Source: Octopus vulgaris | Lineage: Eukaryota | DNA length: 64,000 nt | Direction of reading: 5' to 3' | NCBI GenBank assembly: GCA_951406725.2 | Contig: OX597831.1 | Coordinates: 31,000,001-31,064,000, forward strand | In this document: positions 4,068 to 59,077 of the stretch, piece by piece | Layout of the letters: each line of letters starts with the position of its first letter | Position numbering within the stretch: the first letter of the stretch is position 1 | Made by a program: the position numbers and the translations under genes | The notes under the pieces: model-generated | Told to the model about the DNA's origin: nothing | The model's input: the letters and a program-made list of their open reading frames with translations, nothing else | Databases searched by the model: none

Positions 4068-4106
4068 TTCTTTATATTTCGGACTAAAAGCTCTATCTTC
4101 AGAAGG
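4068..4106 (-). ncRNA. Minimal type I hammerhead-like motif
   Basis: Minus strand: CTT-CTGAAGA-TAGAGCTTTTAGTCC-GAAAT-ATA-AAG. The core is canonical, stem I is CTT/AAG and stem II is imperfect. Confidence 0.5.
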
Positions 4107-4439
4107 AAGCACTCTAAGAAATGTGTATTTACCGTTTCTATTTTTATTATCATTTTAAACTGCGCAGTTTGAGTTAGCAGCAACGGCAACTCTTCACATG
4201 TTAGTCGTGATTGTTATGACATTTTTTCGTAGTAATGGTGGAAGATGGTGTCAGTGGCGAATGACATGACGTTGGTCGTAATCGCCGTGATGTATTCATA
4301 GGATCCACCCACCCATCTCCGATCGATTACTGACTTTTGAGTTGAGGCGGTGGATTAACATAACCTCCTTAATACGTAGATTTCCTGTGTTCCCTGAGGC
4401 TAGTATGTCAGTGCATGTTTCTTTGTTGATATTGCACGA

Positions 4440-4598
4440 CAGACGTCCACACAGTTTACGTTTACCAGATTCACAAGGTACCAATGGATCTGGTTTACAG
4501 TAGAATAAAAACTTGCTCAAGGTGCCACGCAGCAGGACTGAACCAGTAACCACGTAGCTGCAAAGCAAGCTTCTTAACCTTACAGCCATGTCTGCGCA
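4440..4598 (-). mobile_element. SINE family B 5' part
   Basis: Reverse complement GCAGACATGGCTGTAAGGTTAAGAAGCTTGC...GGTTCAGTCCTGCTGCGTGGCACCTTGAGCAAGT resembles the copy at 43309. Confidence 0.7.
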
Positions 4599-5194
4599 TA
4601 ATGTAAGCGAACATCATGAAAATCCATCCTACTTGCAACTGATTTCAACACGCGAAGCTAACGTTGTAGATATCGATATTTACCCATCATAGATGCTAAA
4701 TGGAAATATAATACGGCGTGCCTATTTATAACAGACAAGTGTACTTTACACGATATCTATTTACAGTTTACTAGCATAGAGTTACGGGAGACAACCATGC
4801 TGCTTCAACATGGTCTTTCGAAACGCTAGAAATAGCAGTTAGAGCTCTGTCACTGGAACCACATCGGGACCGATATGAGACAGACATTGAATGAGTGTGT
4901 AAGTCATACACCAGTACAATCATACCTTGGCAACAAGATATGATTCCCCGGGAGCAGCAACACGCACGCACAGACACACACTCACTAACTCACACATGCA
5001 CATGTGCACACAGTAGTAAATGCGTTTGTGTGTTAGTGAATGTATGAATATAAGCATGGTTGTCATGTTTGTGTAAGCATGTAATATCTATCTATCTATC
5101 TATCTATCTATCTATCTATCTATCTATCTATATGTGTGTGTGCTTGTGTGTATGTGTGTGTGTGTGCGTGTATAGATATAGATAGATAAATGTA

Positions 5195-5335
5195 GATTAT
5201 TTACATTATTTACATTATTTACATTTGAGGGATATTTGTCCTCATCTTGTTTGTTGTTAAAACGTTTCAGCTGATATACCATCCAGCCTTCATCAGGTGT
5301 CTTGGGGAAATTTTGAACCTGGGTTTTCATTAGAA
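5195..5335 (-). mobile_element. PLE-type terminal repeat fragment with a hammerhead core
   Basis: Minus strand: ACAC-CTGATGA-AGGCTG-GATGGTATAT-CAGCT-GAAAC-GTT. The stem I partner is missing. Adjacent to a microsatellite. Confidence 0.55.
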
Positions 5336-6151
5336 ATGCCAAAAAAATAGGGTATTTTGGAAAACTTTTTAGGAGCAACGCAACAACTGTGACACACAAA
5401 AATGATGAATACGATCTACGTTTGGTAGTATCATCATCAGCAGTTCCACCGTTCCGAATAACCTCCATGGTTATGCAGGACAATACTCACTATATGACGC
5501 TTTACTAGTTTTGGACTGTGACTAGAAATTTGTTTCTCTGAACCAGGAATTACTGGTCATACATGACACATGTCCTAAATTTTTAAGATATTGGTGAGTA
5601 ATTTGAGGGAGATTTGGCTGGTATTACGTAGCAGGTCAGACGATAACGTAGAGGCCATCATAACACTTTGGTGAACATAATGTTACGGAATATCATTTGA
5701 TGTTAAAGGAATGTGGATGTTGTTTCCGCAGTTAACGATTATATTTTAATCAATACATTTTCAAGACTTTGAATAAGATTTACGAAGTGAAAGATTATTA
5801 ATTTCAATGGTCTCTCTCTGTGTAGATAATGAGAATTTATCTTAATAACCATCATGAAAAGGAAGGGGTTAAGAAAATATTCTCAGACAATAGACTTGCC
5901 AGTTCTGCTTAATGGGGTAGAATCATTGGATAAGAAATCTTAAGGGACTTTGGCTGTGATTTATCGTTGACCATTTCGACGTCACACAAGATTGGTCAAG
6001 ATTTCAGTTCCCTCTGGATATGTCATATGCAGTAATTAAAATTTCATGCTGTTCTTCCATAATAACATTGGCAGCAATTCGCAGGAGCCACTTTAGGAAA
6101 GGTTTAGCCGAAGGCGTTATTTAATGCTCGAGATATATTGAAGTGACCTAC

Positions 6152-6211
6152 CTGACAATAATTCAATAAGACTCTGTTTGTCTCAATTACAAACGCATCG
6201 ATGCAATTTTG
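6152..6211 (-). CDS. Candidate 60-nt internal exon (QNCIDAFVIETNRVLLNYCQ)
   Basis: Minus strand: gtttcttttttcacttcacaccgtcag|60 nt|gtaggt. Open only in phase 0. No homology recognised. Confidence 0.25.
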
Positions 6212-55971: not shown

Positions 55972-56358
55972 TTTTTTGAAAGCACTCCGTCGGTTACGAC
56001 GATGAGGGTTCCGGTTGATCCGACCAACGGAACAGCCTGCTCGTGAAATTAACATGTAAGTGGCTGAGCACTTCACAGACACGTGTACCCTTAACGTAGT
56101 TCTCGGGGATATTCAGGGTGACACAGAGAATGACAAGGCCGGTCCTTTGAAATACAGGTACAACAGAAACAGGAAGAAAGAGTGAGAGAAAGTTGTGGTG
56201 AAAGAGTACAGCAGGGATCACCACCATGCCCTACCGGAGCCTCGTGGAGCTTTAGGTGTTTTCGCTCAATAAACACTCACAACGCCCGGTCTGGGAATCG
56301 AAACCGCGATCCTACGACCGCGAGTCCGCTGCCCTAACCACTGGGCCATTGCGCCTCC
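55972..56358 (-). mobile_element. SINE family C, full length, 10-bp TSD
   Basis: Reverse complement: GGAGGCGCAATGGCCCAGTGGTTAGGG...GTTTCGATTCCC. TSD TACACAGTCT at 55962-55971 and 56360-56369. Confidence 0.9.
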
Positions 56359-56616
56359 TTACACAGTCTACACAACAGCAAATTATTACCACGATTGAAT
56401 TCAACTACTAACGATATATAGATCAAATCGATGAGGTCACCAAATTGACGTGCTGCACACCATAACTTATACCCCACCTAACTTTCAACTACTGTCGCGT
56501 TTCAGTTTCATCACCGCAGCTTAAACAATGATGGCATGATGGTATATATATATCTGTTAAATTTATACACCTGTCCACAACTGAATACAGTTACACGGTC
56601 AGCTTCGTTCTAAATC

Positions 56617-56820
56617 AGTGGTTCCCAAACATTTTCGGACTGCCGCCCCTTTGACACCCAAGCCACATCCCTAGCGCCCCTACCTCAACTAATCATCACA
56701 AACATAGACCTCTTTCTGAAGCAAATTCAAACCAACTGTATTTCACAAATAAAAGTTAATCTAATGAACCCATTTTTTTTTGTTGTTGTTTTTACATGAA
56801 TCGCCACCCCATTATCGTAT
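56617..56820 (+). mobile_element. hAT (Charlie-like) terminal fragment
   Basis: TCTAAAT|CAGTGGTTCCCAAAC. Confidence 0.5.
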
Positions 56821-58204
56821 TTTTTTTTGTTCTTGTTCCATTTTTCGTTATTTTTCTAAGTGACCCTTAACTTTTGGCAGTTGCAGTTTCGAAGAGTATT
56901 TGTTTATTTCCTCAAAGCATATGAAATATTTATTCCATTCGCTCGAAATTTTCACGAAAGGTAGATATAAGGTATGTCTAAATATTTGCAAAATATTTAG
57001 TCTCAATGTTTTGTTAATTTTCTATAATAAATATTTCAATACACTTGTTCTAACGACCCTCATATTATTGCCGCTACTGTATATACATATATATATATAT
57101 ATATAGTGTGTGTGTGTGTGTGTGTGTGTGTGTGTGTGTGTGTGTGTGTGTGTGTGTGTGTGTGTGTGTGTGTGTGTGTGTGTGTGCATAAGACCTCCCT
57201 TCCTTCATGAATGACTATGGGATTGCACCTAAACGGTTCCCTTCCGAGGCAATATACACATATAAATACATGCATACATGCATACATATCTTTGTGTGTG
57301 TGTGTGTGAGTGTGTTTGTGTGTGTGTGCGCACGCTCGTGCGTTCGTGTGTGTGTGCGCGCGACGAGCTTTTACACAACTTTCTTATAACAAACTCCGCC
57401 GAGAAGTTATCGGTCAACTCTCCAATCCTAAACTAAGGCCACTTGCTAAAAGTAAACTAAAGCCACTTGCCAAAAGTTACAAGTCCTGGTAAAAAAAAAA
57501 TCACGTGGTTCGGAAGCAATTTGCGAATTACTTAACCACGTAGCCCTACTTGATAAGAATAAGAAACACATGCTCTATCGCATTTGTGTATGATAACTAT
57601 TGTCATGTCGTAAATAACTGATTATTACATCACCAGCTGATAAAATATCGGAATCCTAACTCTTAGATCATTTTTCCTTTTCTACCTTATTGCAGCTCTT
57701 CGTTTTCCTTAACGCCTTTAATGACAACCTTATCTCTCTATTTCCCAAACAAAACATGTTAAGTATGTATGTATGTACGTACGTATGTGTGTGTGTGTGT
57801 ATGTATGAATGCATGTATGTATGTATGTGTGTGTGTACGTATGTACGTATGTATGTATGTGTGTGTGTATGTATGTATGTACGTACGTATGTATGTACGT
57901 ACGTATGTATGTATGTATGTACGTATGTATGTATGTATGTATGTATGTATGTACGTATGTATGTATGAATGTATGTATGTATGTATGTATGTATGTATGT
58001 ATGTATGTATGTATGTGTGTATGTATAAATATATATATATATGAACTTATGAGTATCTCTCTCTATCTTTCTATATATACGAGGGAAAGTCAAAAGTTAT
58101 CCGCACTTTCGCCATAATATACTTTTATTATTGTCACGCCGCCTTCTGCGCAAGCGTGCTTATAATTGGTACTACTGGGGTCACATGATCGAAGTTTGAG
58201 TCTG

Positions 58205-58871
58205 ATCGTGCCATCACTGTTGCTGGAAACTTCGTGTGCATCACTCTGGAAACTTCAGAAATATCTGCACATGTCCACTTGTCTTCGTCTGTTAGATTTC
58301 GGATTCTGGTCAAAGTTTCTTTCGTCAGAGAAAACCAAAGCATACCTTGTTTATGGAGGTGGGGTTACACTTTGTTAAGTAACCGTTTTGAATAGATGAG
58401 ACGGTTTGCCTGTGTTTTTGCAAACACGAATTGGCCTTTCCTCATTACATAGAACCTGTATCAAATATCACGATGTACCACAGTGCTGATAGTCCATTCT
58501 TACCCCCCAGAGTTCTTTAGCAATGGACCTCCTTGATCTTCTGGGGTTTTCATTGACAATGTTTTGAACATGTGGTATAAATTCCGATGTCCCATTAATG
58601 TCTGAGCGTTGTGAATGGTTTTTTTCTCTCTGATACAGGTGAAACATTACCATCACATGCCTCTAATTCCAACCAAACTTTGTGTACAAAAGATCTTGCA
58701 ACATTTAGAAATCACTGTGGTTCGCATGTATAGCAGCTATGACTATATGTATTTTCATTTCTTGTGTTAGCATGATATCTTGAAATGGTTATCTGAAAAA
58801 AATGATACTTTAAATCATTTGAGGTGTAATGAACTTAAGATAAAATATCCTAAAATACCGCTCGCACCCTG
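58205..58871 (-). mobile_element. 5' half of a maT/DD37D-like element related to 37579-38801
   Basis: TA|CAGGGTGCGAGCGG terminus, NPRRSRRSIAKEL and MHTKFPATVMA. It abuts another mariner-like end at about 58080 (TACGAGGGAAAGTCAAAAGTTATCCG). Confidence 0.75.
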
Positions 58872-58902
58872 TATATGTATATTTACATTATTACAATTAA
58901 TG

Positions 58903-59077
58903 CTGCAAAAACATCATAAAAATATCACAAACACCTGGTGCTCAGAGTTTCAGGTTCCCGTCCTTCGGACAGTTTAGATTGAAAATCTCAACATTCTCCA
59001 TCTAAACTGTCCGACGAACGGGGACTTGAAACTCTGAGTAGCAGATTTTTTCTGATATTTTTGTGATGTTCTTGCAG
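58903..59077. repeat. Fold-back element: ~77-bp arms, 20-nt spacer, hammerhead-like motif
   Basis: Arms 58903-58979 and 59000-59077. CTGT-CCGACGA-ACGGGACTT-GAAAC-TCTGA-GTA-GCAG lies at 59007-59043. Confidence 0.85.

Follow-up and report, generated by a model that had tools for sequence, protein, structure and literature searches.

Most of the hammerhead-like motifs listed in the analysed stretch of the Octopus vulgaris genome (64,000 nt, hereafter the window) are worn leftovers of small self-cutting RNAs already known from Penelope-like elements (PLEs). The supported motifs are likely hammerheads of PLE terminal repeats that belong to at least eight unrelated families and persist in the octopus as short terminal pieces copied in by retrotransposition. 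The original prediction, which proposed about ten minimal type I hammerheads from several unrelated PLE families, gave correct motif coordinates, and eight of its 11 motif families are indeed hammerhead-derived; the families at 23010/23385 and 29105 found no support and the one at 28617 is a coreless shell. Complete motifs occur in two of the eight supported families, one with a U3:A8 core (21676-21711(-) and 21781-21816(+)) and one with a G3:C8 core (24393-24443(-)), and the 3-8 core pair has covaried in both. The other six (4068, 5255, 21004, 21344-21427, 44672 and 59007) are damaged. With most motifs decayed, cutting at this locus by any of them appears unlikely. The sites are terminal fragments that stand alone or in head-to-head pairs, and none has the form of a tandem retrozyme. 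The apparent novelty lies in the 3-8 core swap (G3-C8 for C3-G8) of a very abundant octopus family, the kind of system itself being known.

A chance resemblance arising in AT-rich, repetitive sequence is a very improbable reading of the motifs, and for the set as a whole it is refuted by comparison with shuffled sequence. In a log-odds scan of the window against 100 local dinucleotide shuffles, with weights that followed the published consensus but were fixed after the sites had been seen, the top seven matches (at least 18 bits; cores at 24436-, 21708-, 21784+, 21008+, 59011+, 5296- and 4102-) were all on the list, with 0.25 expected per shuffled window. A relaxed scan for complete motifs, in which positions 3 and 8 could form any Watson-Crick pair, returned three with a score of at least 10 (24393-, 21781+ and 21676-) versus 0.075 per shuffled window, and none of 200 shuffles reached three; the combination of canonical core, palindrome and stem I was found twice, against 0.04 by chance. 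Chance is favoured by the background scores of 23010/23385 and 29105, and by relaxed descriptors, which gave eight matches versus 4.75 by chance. No complete minimal hammerhead with the canonical CUGANGA core was found in the window scan, and the strict type I descriptor, with a long loop II allowed, matched only 21004-21107 (1 vs 0.13, 15 shuffles). No hammerhead reached the gathering score in an Rfam search, in which 21002-21109 was the sole weak Hammerhead_1 match (14.5 bits vs a cut-off of 34). In a control with the same letter pattern, microbial metagenomes gave 118 matches, none of which forms both stems. For 4068, 5255, 44672 and 21344, 0.16-2 chance matches each are expected per window, and one or two of these sites may be due to chance.

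Hammerhead descent is very likely for the complete minimal type I motif at 24393-24443(-) (30.4 bits, none in 100 shuffles), in which positions 3 and 8 are both swapped (G3 at 24436, C8 at 24431) and all other core positions are canonical. It has an extra G after A9, a 7-bp stem I, a 5-bp stem II with G10.1-C11.1, a 6-nt palindrome and U17 (at 24400). The motif belongs to a high-copy unit of about 205 bp (24252-24458(-)), a PLE terminal-repeat module delimited by contig depth, loose ends and pieces, which starts 0-15 nt ahead of the hammerhead and stops, on its 3' side, either near 24311 or near 24252. The copy at 24244-24576 carries the hallmarks of a Penelope insertion: an inverted, 5'-truncated second arm (24460-24565(+), 89% identity) that begins inside loop II and lacks core and tail, a 58-bp 'tail' on one arm only (24255-24312(-)), and an 11-bp target-site duplication (TSD), whose left copy ends in ATT (24244-24254(+); right copy 24566-24576(+)) and whose length was equalled in one of 400 random flank pairs. 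All three hallmarks are also seen in rotifer PLEs (PMC3846280, PMC8557442).

In public contigs of three organisms, this unit is about 10,000-fold deeper than its flanks (summed contig depth of about 1e5-4e6 over most of 24255-24524 vs 0-124, three DNA runs), with the main loose ends at 24252, 24443, 24455 and, beside (TA)n, 24310-12. No core variant was found at 8% or more in four runs, and because none exceeds this level at such depth, the G3:C8 swap is the family norm. Neither this norm of a very abundant family nor the covaried 3-8 pairs of both complete motifs had been noticed in the original prediction. Of 20 variable places in the unit none lies in the core, and of those within the motif two fall in loop II, one on a U-G wobble of stem I and one on a CpG of stem II. 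Taken by itself, the lack of core variants does not reach significance (P 0.26) and thus shows consensus, not selection; that two chance core changes fall on positions 3 and 8 as a Watson-Crick pair has a P of about 0.006. Both covariant families carry a U at position 17, so that neither a G3-C17 nor a U3-A17 pair can form. This population-level check covers one of the eight families, the others being represented by one or two copies each. The predicted double-hammerhead of the G3:C8 motif (-25.4 kcal/mol) is barely better than two monomers (2 x -12.4), and an alternative dimer is more stable (-30.6); we give the family consensus about an even chance of measurable cleavage. A literature search that did not cover Lunse et al. 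2017 turned up the G3:C8 core as a lab mutant only, with no natural example, high-copy or otherwise.

The second complete motif, at 21781-21816(+) (23.7 bits), forms the right arm of a head-to-head pair (21593-21899) and combines a U3:A8 core with an extra U, a 5-bp stem II, a 4-nt palindrome and a stem I of just 3 bp that folding does not favour. It had been placed on both strands of the same interval; the motif is real, but its minus-strand counterpart is the identical inverted copy in the left arm, at 21676-21711(-). Natural U3-A8 cores are known (Perreault 2011, PMC3088659), and the variant was already published for hammerheads of this kind in 2014 (PMC4209133).

The damaged families have lost different parts. 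At 21004-21107(+) (21.6 bits, 0.04 expected, z -2.8) lies a type I hammerhead whose core is canonical and whose 5-bp stem II carries a large, branched loop; its stem III is damaged. The copy at 21344-21427(-) (14.3 bits, 2 expected; canonical core at 21416-21422(-)) shows a long rod-like stem II, a near-palindromic stem III, C17 and a stem I paired at three of five positions, and stops without a tail at (TA)n at 21324; a second copy of this family at 20573-20686(-) (96.7% over 90 bp) is coreless, 5'-truncated at the start of stem II, inserted in (TA)n and provided with a tail of about 23 nt. This family, listed as 20616/21345, is real but had been mis-drawn, the tip of its long stem II (fold z -5.8 in the 20573 copy and -2.2) having been taken for the core. 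Decayed minimal hammerheads lie at 5255-5300(-) (18.8 bits, 0.16 expected), where canonical core, stem II and palindrome are retained and stem I is gone, and at 4068-4106(-) (18.1 bits, 0.25 expected), which retains canonical core, palindrome and stem I with stem II out of register. A probable, borderline case at 44672-44709(+) (core at 44676+; 15.7 bits, about 1 expected) keeps the canonical core and a 4-bp stem I, stem II being gone. The motif at 59007-59043(+) (20.1 bits, 0.09 expected), the right arm of the head-to-head pair 58888-59092, has a U4C core, stem I, a 9-nt palindrome and a weak stem II; its more decayed left-arm partner at 58935-58972(-) (13.8 bits) is also U4C.

In the listed reading, 23010, 23385, 28617 and 29105 are absent from the 45 best log-odds matches and have no stem II in register. 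The candidate at 22990-23060(-), a repeat recurring at 23365-23430, scores at background, as does 29105-29145(-), where a core-like word (CCGACGA) and GAAA stand without stems. At 28617-28667(+), the right arm of a head-to-head pair retains stem I, GAAA and an 8-nt palindrome; no recognisable 5' core was found in this arm or in its partner at 28354-28404(-), nor a stem II at 28617. The inverted repeat 39544-39718 contains no such motif. The listed proximity to microsatellites is borne out, as eight of 13 sites have one no more than 150 nt away and the median distance is 104 nt against 277 nt (P about 0.03), and so are the inverted arrangements, typical of PLE insertions, as head-to-head pairs occur in four families.

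Three PLE coding remnants had been announced for the window, of which two broken ones were recovered: 26421-26930(-), comprising the cysteine-rich linker and the start of the GIY-YIG endonuclease (E 7e-26, Octopus bimaculoides protein), and 54087-54393(-), which matches these proteins in their central, reverse-transcriptase region (E 4e-9, Octopus vulgaris RT-domain protein); a profile of nine related proteins did not find the third. None of the motifs is joined to a PLE reading frame, and their PLE link rests on architecture rather than on homology to an intact element. In O. vulgaris, PLEs account for 6.83% of the genome and fall into 190 families, and the motif density here is therefore ordinary. 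Following the biochemistry of PAc (PMC11167929), a PLE protein would nick AT-rich DNA and prime reverse transcription on uncleaved RNA, and two internal start sites 3' of the hammerhead would give copies with or without the 'tail'. The G3:C8 family does show two 3' ends, which lie 87-89 and 145-148 nt beyond the cut site, and the 21344 family likewise has two, separated by about 23 nt. Copies stop just 5' of the hammerhead, often with an inverted second arm added head-to-head (four families); apart from the 11-bp TSD of the 24244-24576 copy, none was found in these pairs. Because copies retain the intact motif, they were not excised at the cleavage site. If the motif acts in the parent RNA at all, it may do so as a dimer paired through the palindrome or assisted by the PLE protein, and selection may have retained or restored the 3-8 pair, in which case the active fold would have mattered in the parent lineage.

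It is possible, though we consider it the weaker reading, that the short units did not arise by truncation of full-length PLEs and are independent, non-autonomous elements of a SINE-like or retrozyme-like kind, with a transcription start just upstream of the hammerhead and mobilised by PLE proteins; this differs from our preferred explanation in the source RNA only. The sharp 5' end of G3:C8 copies (24443 and 24455 in all four runs), their very high depth, the poor agreement of the letters upstream of these ends (three DNA runs) and an arm homology that begins about 10-25 nt ahead of stem I in three more families all speak for it, as does the origin of retrozymes, often monomeric, from PLE termini (bioRxiv 10.64898/2026.07.22.740005). 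However, the same 5' end would result if reverse transcription halted at the folded motif, or from the start site that the PLE itself has in its terminal repeat; copies do not end at the cleavage site and the 20573 copy is truncated within the motif. Nor is any site part of a tandem array, and tandem joints are rare in the G3:C8 family (depth of 18-165 vs 1e5-1e6), so the predicted 'retrozyme-like' character is not supported.

The further proposal of several working self-cleavage sites, by which a read-through transcript would be cut or circularised, is improbable. Two complete motifs with minus-strand copies 2.7 kb apart (24393, 21676) would fit it, and one run, RNA by a guessed label (X15), contains the G3:C8 unit, but six of the eight supported families are damaged and the complete motifs sit in head-to-head pairs, where with the inverted arm the pairing probability of stems I and II is 0.0 in both families; the different palindrome lengths (6 vs 4 nt) would also disfavour a mixed dimer. 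Elsewhere, a single-copy minimal hammerhead showed no cleavage (PMC4209133), no Anolis RNA-seq read ends at the cut site (PMC11167929) and one of nine Xenopus dimers was cleaved. Mutator elements have long TIRs and 9-11-bp TSDs. The long inverted arms in four cases and the 11-bp TSD in one could thus suggest MITEs of a DNA transposon with an incidental hammerhead likeness, which we regard as most improbable given that the 58-bp tail separates TSD from arm on one side only, that family copies are mostly single arms ending at 24443-24458 with rare opposite-strand joints, and that nothing like the 30.4-bit motif arose in 100 shuffles.

Reading the motifs as PLE terminal fragments places them next to the minimal hammerheads described from metazoan genomes, including the molluscs Lottia and Crassostrea (Cervera & De la Pena 2014, PMC4209133), which form many heterogeneous families of mostly single motifs, with a U3-A8 variant and opposite-strand pairs 100-700 bp apart. 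The octopus motifs likewise follow the type I order, with a short stem I, a minimal stem III that is palindromic, an extra base behind A9 and G10.1-C11.1, and they share the U3-A8 variant, the opposite-strand pairs and the many unrelated, mostly solo families per genome. They differ in the long or branched stem II of two families, in the extra base of the G3:C8 family (G, published consensus H) and in the G3:C8 core, which the part of that paper covered here does not describe; octopus is absent from the one supplement file searched. With PLE insertion units (Arkhipova 2013 PMC3846280; Craig 2021 PMC8557442; Frangieh 2024 PMC11167929) they have in common the head-to-head inverted truncated arm, the tail at one end, insertion into AT-rich or (TA)n sequence, an ATT junction and a similar TSD (8-10 bp vs 11 here). 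Counted from the start of stem II, the first 3' end is reached after 116-118 nt; in PAc it is 111-118 nt away from a start codon at the same place. The tail has 58 bp in the G3:C8 family and about 23 bp in the 21344 family, against 30-40 in the published units, and, unlike these, the units of the octopus are terminal modules only, with no reading frame attached. Animal non-LTR retrozymes (Cervera & De la Pena 2020 PMC7229834; Li et al. 2026 bioRxiv 10.64898/2026.07.22.740005) are likewise short, non-coding, high-copy, of similar unit length, equipped with a type I hammerhead and derived from PLE termini. They are, however, defined by tandem repeats with a hammerhead per unit, and those of 2020 have mostly canonical motifs and circular RNAs, whereas the octopus copies are solo or head-to-head with minimal motifs. 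Uncleaved RNA is the main PLE insertion substrate (PMC11167929), and in the same study a C3G/G8C double mutant partly restored cleavage of a PLE hammerhead; a G3-C8 hammerhead is less active with C17 (PMC3884650). The same 3-8 tertiary pair is swapped in these engineered, in vitro partly active mutants (PMC11167929, PMC8495972, PMC3884650) as in the octopus, where G3:C8 is the natural consensus of a repeat family common to several organisms.

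In the active fold of the hammerhead, positions 3 and 8 of the core form a pair (PMC3088659). When any Watson-Crick combination was allowed there, three complete type I hammerhead motifs with a score of at least 10 were recovered from the window, against 0.075 per locally shuffled window, and none of 200 shuffles reached this number. These are the motif at 24393-24443(-), in which positions 3 and 8 are swapped to G3:C8 relative to the canonical C3:G8, and the motif at 21781-21816(+) with its inverted twin at 21676-21711(-), both carrying U3:A8. A strict type I descriptor with canonical core is passed only by 21004-21107 (one match versus 0.13 in 15 shuffles), and no complete minimal hammerhead with a canonical CUGANGA core exists in the window. 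Canonical-core descriptors overlooked both kinds of complete motif, and local Rfam searches returned no hammerhead for either of them; over the whole window, the 150 of 253 Rfam matches listed comprised only microsatellite-driven miRNA matches. As neither CUGANGA descriptors nor the Rfam model detect these motifs, hammerhead counts in animal genomes are too low, which constitutes a blind spot for surveys of this type.

The motifs named in the original prediction are present where it placed them, and the seven best matches of a log-odds scan (30.4-18.1 bits; cores 24436(-), 21708(-), 21784(+), 21008(+), 59011(+), 5296(-) and 4102(-), in this order) all belong to its list, with 0.25 matches expected at 18 bits (both strands, 100 shuffles). 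The next core, 44676(+), lies at a level where about one match per window is expected by chance. It should be noted that the log-odds weights were chosen after the sites had been seen, and that they are in line with the published consensus. The combination of canonical core, palindrome and stem I was observed twice (0.04 expected). The proposed proximity to microsatellites was also borne out, as motif sites lie nearer to them than random places do (median 104 versus 277 nt, P about 0.03). Hammerhead-like candidates beyond the list, at 51251-51285(+) and with cores at 11573(-) and 41003(-), occur at chance level (0.3-1.3 expected per window); the first of them fits the U3:A8 descriptor and was rejected because of its chance-level score.

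Eight of the 11 motif families originally proposed hold, two of them being complete. Five families, named here by their start coordinates, retain a canonical core (4068, 5255, 21004, 44672 and the family of 20616/21345, with its core at 21416), and the remaining three carry U3:A8, G3:C8 and, in both arms of the 59007 family, U4C. Support was lacking for 23010/23385, which have no type I core, and for 29105, a core word without stems, while 28617 combines stem I, GAAA, an 8-nt palindrome and a head-to-head pair with no recognisable core. The minimal stem III, palindromic and with U16.1 and H17 after it, is exact in 24393, 21781/21676, 4068, 5255, 59007 and 28617, deviates by a single change or wobble pair in 44672 and 21344, and is damaged in 21004. 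Stem II is closed by G10.1-C11.1 in 24393, 21781/21676, 21004 and 21344 and by a G-U pair in 5255; in 4068, 44672 and 59007 the closing pair is out of register. An extra base between A9 and G10.1 is U in 21781, A in 5255 and G in 24393, and is missing from 21004 and 21344. One helix each is damaged in 21004 (stem III), in 5255 (stem I) and in 4068, 44672 and 59007 (stem II), and stem I of the U3:A8 motif, only 3 bp long, is unfavoured in folding. The 20616/21345 family is real and had been drawn wrongly, its core actually residing at 21416-21422(-), ahead of a long, rod-like stem II (fold z -5.8 and -2.2); its copy at 20573-20686(-), flanked by (TA)n on both sides, is broken off where stem II begins and has about 23 extra bases at the 3' end. 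Seven of the eight supported families are known from one or two copies, and for four of these 0.16-2 matches would be expected by chance. Near 21160, a candidate for another copy of the 21004 motif gave no alignment and was rejected. A family consensus for the 5255 motif was sought in predicted proteins spanning it and none was found, and two motifs of the window are not present in the Craig 2021 supplement. Stem II of the U3:A8 motif begins with an AUG (21790-21792(+)) made up of A9, the additional U and G10.1, with a stop after three codons; the start codon of the anole Penelope-like element (PLE) is in the same place (PMC11167929).

The G3:C8 motif stands at the head of a unit of about 205 bp (24252-24458(-)). 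The stretch containing it (24195-24640) is partly present in twenty public sequencing runs from 13 studies, 18 runs from five organisms containing 31-66% of its words. For this family alone, contigs of four runs from three organisms were aligned to the stretch at 80% likeness, two runs with a small share (X19 and X20) being left out; one run, X15, is RNA only by guess, and its contigs were not counted as evidence of expression. In three DNA runs, the summed contig depth reaches about 1e5-4e6 over most of 24255-24524, compared with 0-124 in the flanks, which as a rough inference corresponds to some 10^4-10^5 copies of the unit, the depth itself being no copy number. Loose contig ends cluster at 24252, 24443 and 24455, as well as at 24310-12 beside (TA)n, and their positions place the beginning of the unit 0-15 nt ahead of the hammerhead and its two alternative 3' ends at 87-89 and 145-148 nt beyond the cut site.

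Twenty positions of the unit vary in at least 8% of the depth, and none of them is a core base; inside the motif, variation is confined to two bases of loop II, an A-to-G change in stem I, where pairing persists as U-G, and a stem II CpG. G3:C8 is therefore the norm of the family and not a product of decay in the window copy. The absence of core variants was rejected as proof of selection (P 0.26). Selection on the 3-8 pair is better argued from the chance that two core changes fall on exactly these positions as a Watson-Crick pair (P about 0.006), together with the behaviour of mutants, in which G8C alone lowers the rate about 1e5-fold and C3G partly restores it (PMC8495972), a partial rescue also described in a PLE hammerhead (PMC11167929). 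Position 17 of the motif is U, whereby a G3-C17 pair is avoided; in a G3-C8 variant, activity with C17 was below that with G17 (PMC3884650). A metagenome scan for the G3:C8 letter pattern gave 118 microbial matches from 9 of 64 parts, both stems forming in none of the 118; these matches contain no relatives of the motif and serve as a control. Folding of the motif alone predicts stems I and II at probabilities of 0.93 and 0.98. The predicted energy of a double-hammerhead dimer (-25.4 kcal/mol) is only slightly ahead of two monomers (-24.8 kcal/mol) and behind an alternative dimer (-30.6 kcal/mol).

In the window copy of this family, the two halves of a target-site duplication (TSD) enclose, in this order, a tail of 58 bp, a full arm and an inverted arm truncated at its 5' end. 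Its TSD measures 11 bp and ends in ATT, the sequence favoured by the anole PLE endonuclease (PMC11167929); an equally good duplication was found in one of 400 random flank pairs. An inverted, 5'-truncated arm lying head-to-head with the main copy characterises four families (21593-21899, 24306-24572, 28268-28762 and 58888-59092), and TSDs sought for all four pairs were absent in the other three. The window has five short inverted repeats that are not microsatellites; in four of them a motif occupies the inner arm end, and the fifth (39544-39718, 72% identity) carries no hammerhead-like motif. Tails of 58 bp in the G3:C8 family and about 23 bp in the 20573/21324 pair both fall outside the usual 30-40 bp.

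Head-to-head elements of this kind could also be read as MITEs of a DNA transposon. Such elements have terminal inverted repeats placed directly against the TSD at either end. The 24393 copy, flanked by a TSD and containing inverted arms, instead has a unique tail of 58 bp between TSD and arm on the left side only, and most copies of the family are single-armed, both of which speak against a MITE. In rotifers, PLE insertions show TSDs of 8-10 bp and a tail on one arm (PMC3846280, PMC8557442), a layout like that of the 24393 copy apart from its TSD of 11 bp. Reverse transcription of the anole PLE starts at two internal sites downstream of the hammerhead, and its tail corresponds to the sequence between them; the main template is uncleaved RNA, and hammerhead mutants still insert normally (PMC11167929). 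By analogy with this element, a PLE protein would nick AT-rich DNA and copy uncleaved RNA from either of two starts downstream of the ribozyme; two 3' ends, as expected from two starts, are observed in families of the window. Synthesis mostly stops just 5' of the motif and sometimes yields an inverted second arm, as seen here, after which the copies would decay. Any action of the ribozyme would be limited to the parent RNA, where it would work as a dimer or with the help of protein.

The short unit may be a self-standing element or a truncation product, and we consider the former possible, if somewhat the less probable. The fuller proposal, in which the ~205-bp unit is a self-standing, non-autonomous Penelope derivative with about 10^4-10^5 copies in several octopus genomes and its hammerhead a working natural core-swap variant, appears rather unlikely to us as a whole. 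If it were true, the presence of U17 and of a double transversion that can be reached only by way of a nearly inactive single mutant would mean that the catalytic fold is maintained by selection during the PLE cycle, in a tuned-down form, and a ribozyme tuned down in this manner would leave most of the RNA uncut for reverse transcription from internal starts.

The description of these families as retrozyme-like did not survive. By definition, retrozymes are arranged in tandem, two or more successive units each containing a complete hammerhead, and the non-LTR ones are expressed as abundant small circular RNA (PMC7229834; bioRxiv 10.64898/2026.07.22.740005). No motif site of the window lies in a tandem array, and tandem joints of the G3:C8 unit have a depth of 18-165 versus 1e5-1e6, so that the defining test fails. 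A rare head-to-tail tandem of the family is represented by a single contig (depth 125, at 24312-24454), in which a 22-letter TA-rich spacer connects the unit's 5' end with its short 3' end. Several working cut sites per transcript, as had been suggested, are likewise unlikely, because in folding the inverted arm abolishes stems I and II in either complete motif (pairing probability 0.0). A published minimal hammerhead did not cleave as a single copy (PMC4209133), and among Xenopus dimers one of nine was cleaved (bioRxiv 10.64898/2026.07.22.740005).

The window itself (G+C 37%) is rich in microsatellites and transposon debris; as microsatellites swamped the repeat finder, repeats were identified by masked self-BLAST. 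Two of the three PLE coding remnants originally claimed were confirmed (26421-26930(-) and 54087-54393(-)), and a third was not found. The two closest named relatives of one PLE coding remnant are proteins of Octopus bimaculoides and O. vulgaris, from which the host is an octopus. For the endonuclease remnant, relatives of full length escaped a word-index search and were found by a full scan and a second search. Pfam gave no PLE domain among the 143 of 331 open frames searched. The remnants lie about 1.4-4.5 kb from the nearest motifs, none being joined to one, and no motif in the window is connected to a PLE reading frame.

Other elements include a broken mariner-type transposase at 9643-10613(+) (Pfam HTH_48, Transposase_1 and a weak DDE_3), with a related short repeat at 6749-6876 and 28072-28214, and an LTR-retrotransposon remnant at 60891-63514, in which two 146-bp direct repeats, 96.6% alike, flank minus-strand integrase and RNase H pieces. 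Broken reading frames at 200-2080(-) and 33523-35215(-) have no Pfam match and resemble the endonuclease region at the C-terminus of LINEs of the R4/Dong type. More than 15 copies, with 70-87% identity, belong to a SINE-like family of 170-230 bp (for example, 15017-15715, 18112-18352, 22446-22636, 47716-48097, 53525-53916, 60614-60848 and 63531-63751), and a second repeat family occupies 7541-7603, 24843-25290, 43297-43693 and 59195-59660. At 41985-42322, a 168-bp unit is repeated twice in tandem (95% identity), with no hammerhead inside it among the listed scan results. An inverted 70-bp pair at 48656-49727, possibly a DNA-transposon remnant, surrounds open frames of 122 and 210 codons that matched nothing in Pfam, and degenerate, telomere-like GGTTAG repeats lie at 63902-63983.

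Taken together, the system is of a known kind and was over-called in part by the original prediction; what is new is that a very abundant family of animal repeats has a natural G3:C8 core as its norm. The literature searched on hammerheads in octopus or cephalopods contains no report of these motifs, and for a G3:C8 core it yields only engineered mutants; Lunse et al. 2017 and some supplements, which lie outside the search, might list either. Decayed, mixed PLE hammerheads are ordinary, having been known in many animals since 2014, and PLEs make up about 7% of the O. vulgaris genome (6.83%, 190 families; PMC13282606, a paper in which ribozymes go unmentioned). PLE hammerheads are weak in vitro and dispensable for insertion (PMC11167929). 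The G3:C8 family, with both partners of a tertiary pair changed and the rest of the core intact, lends itself well to testing whether the active fold is under selection: its thousands of copies allow canonical, swapped and single-mutant forms to be tallied, and the three can be compared directly in assays. Mixed populations of this sort, including opposite-strand pairs and U3-A8, were described by Cervera and De la Pena in 2014 (PMC4209133), and the supported motifs of the window, taken as a set, share with the minimal hammerheads of that study the type I order, the palindromic stem III with U16.1 and H17, and G10.1-C11.1. The extra base reported there is H (A, C or U), whereas the G3:C8 motif has a G in this place.
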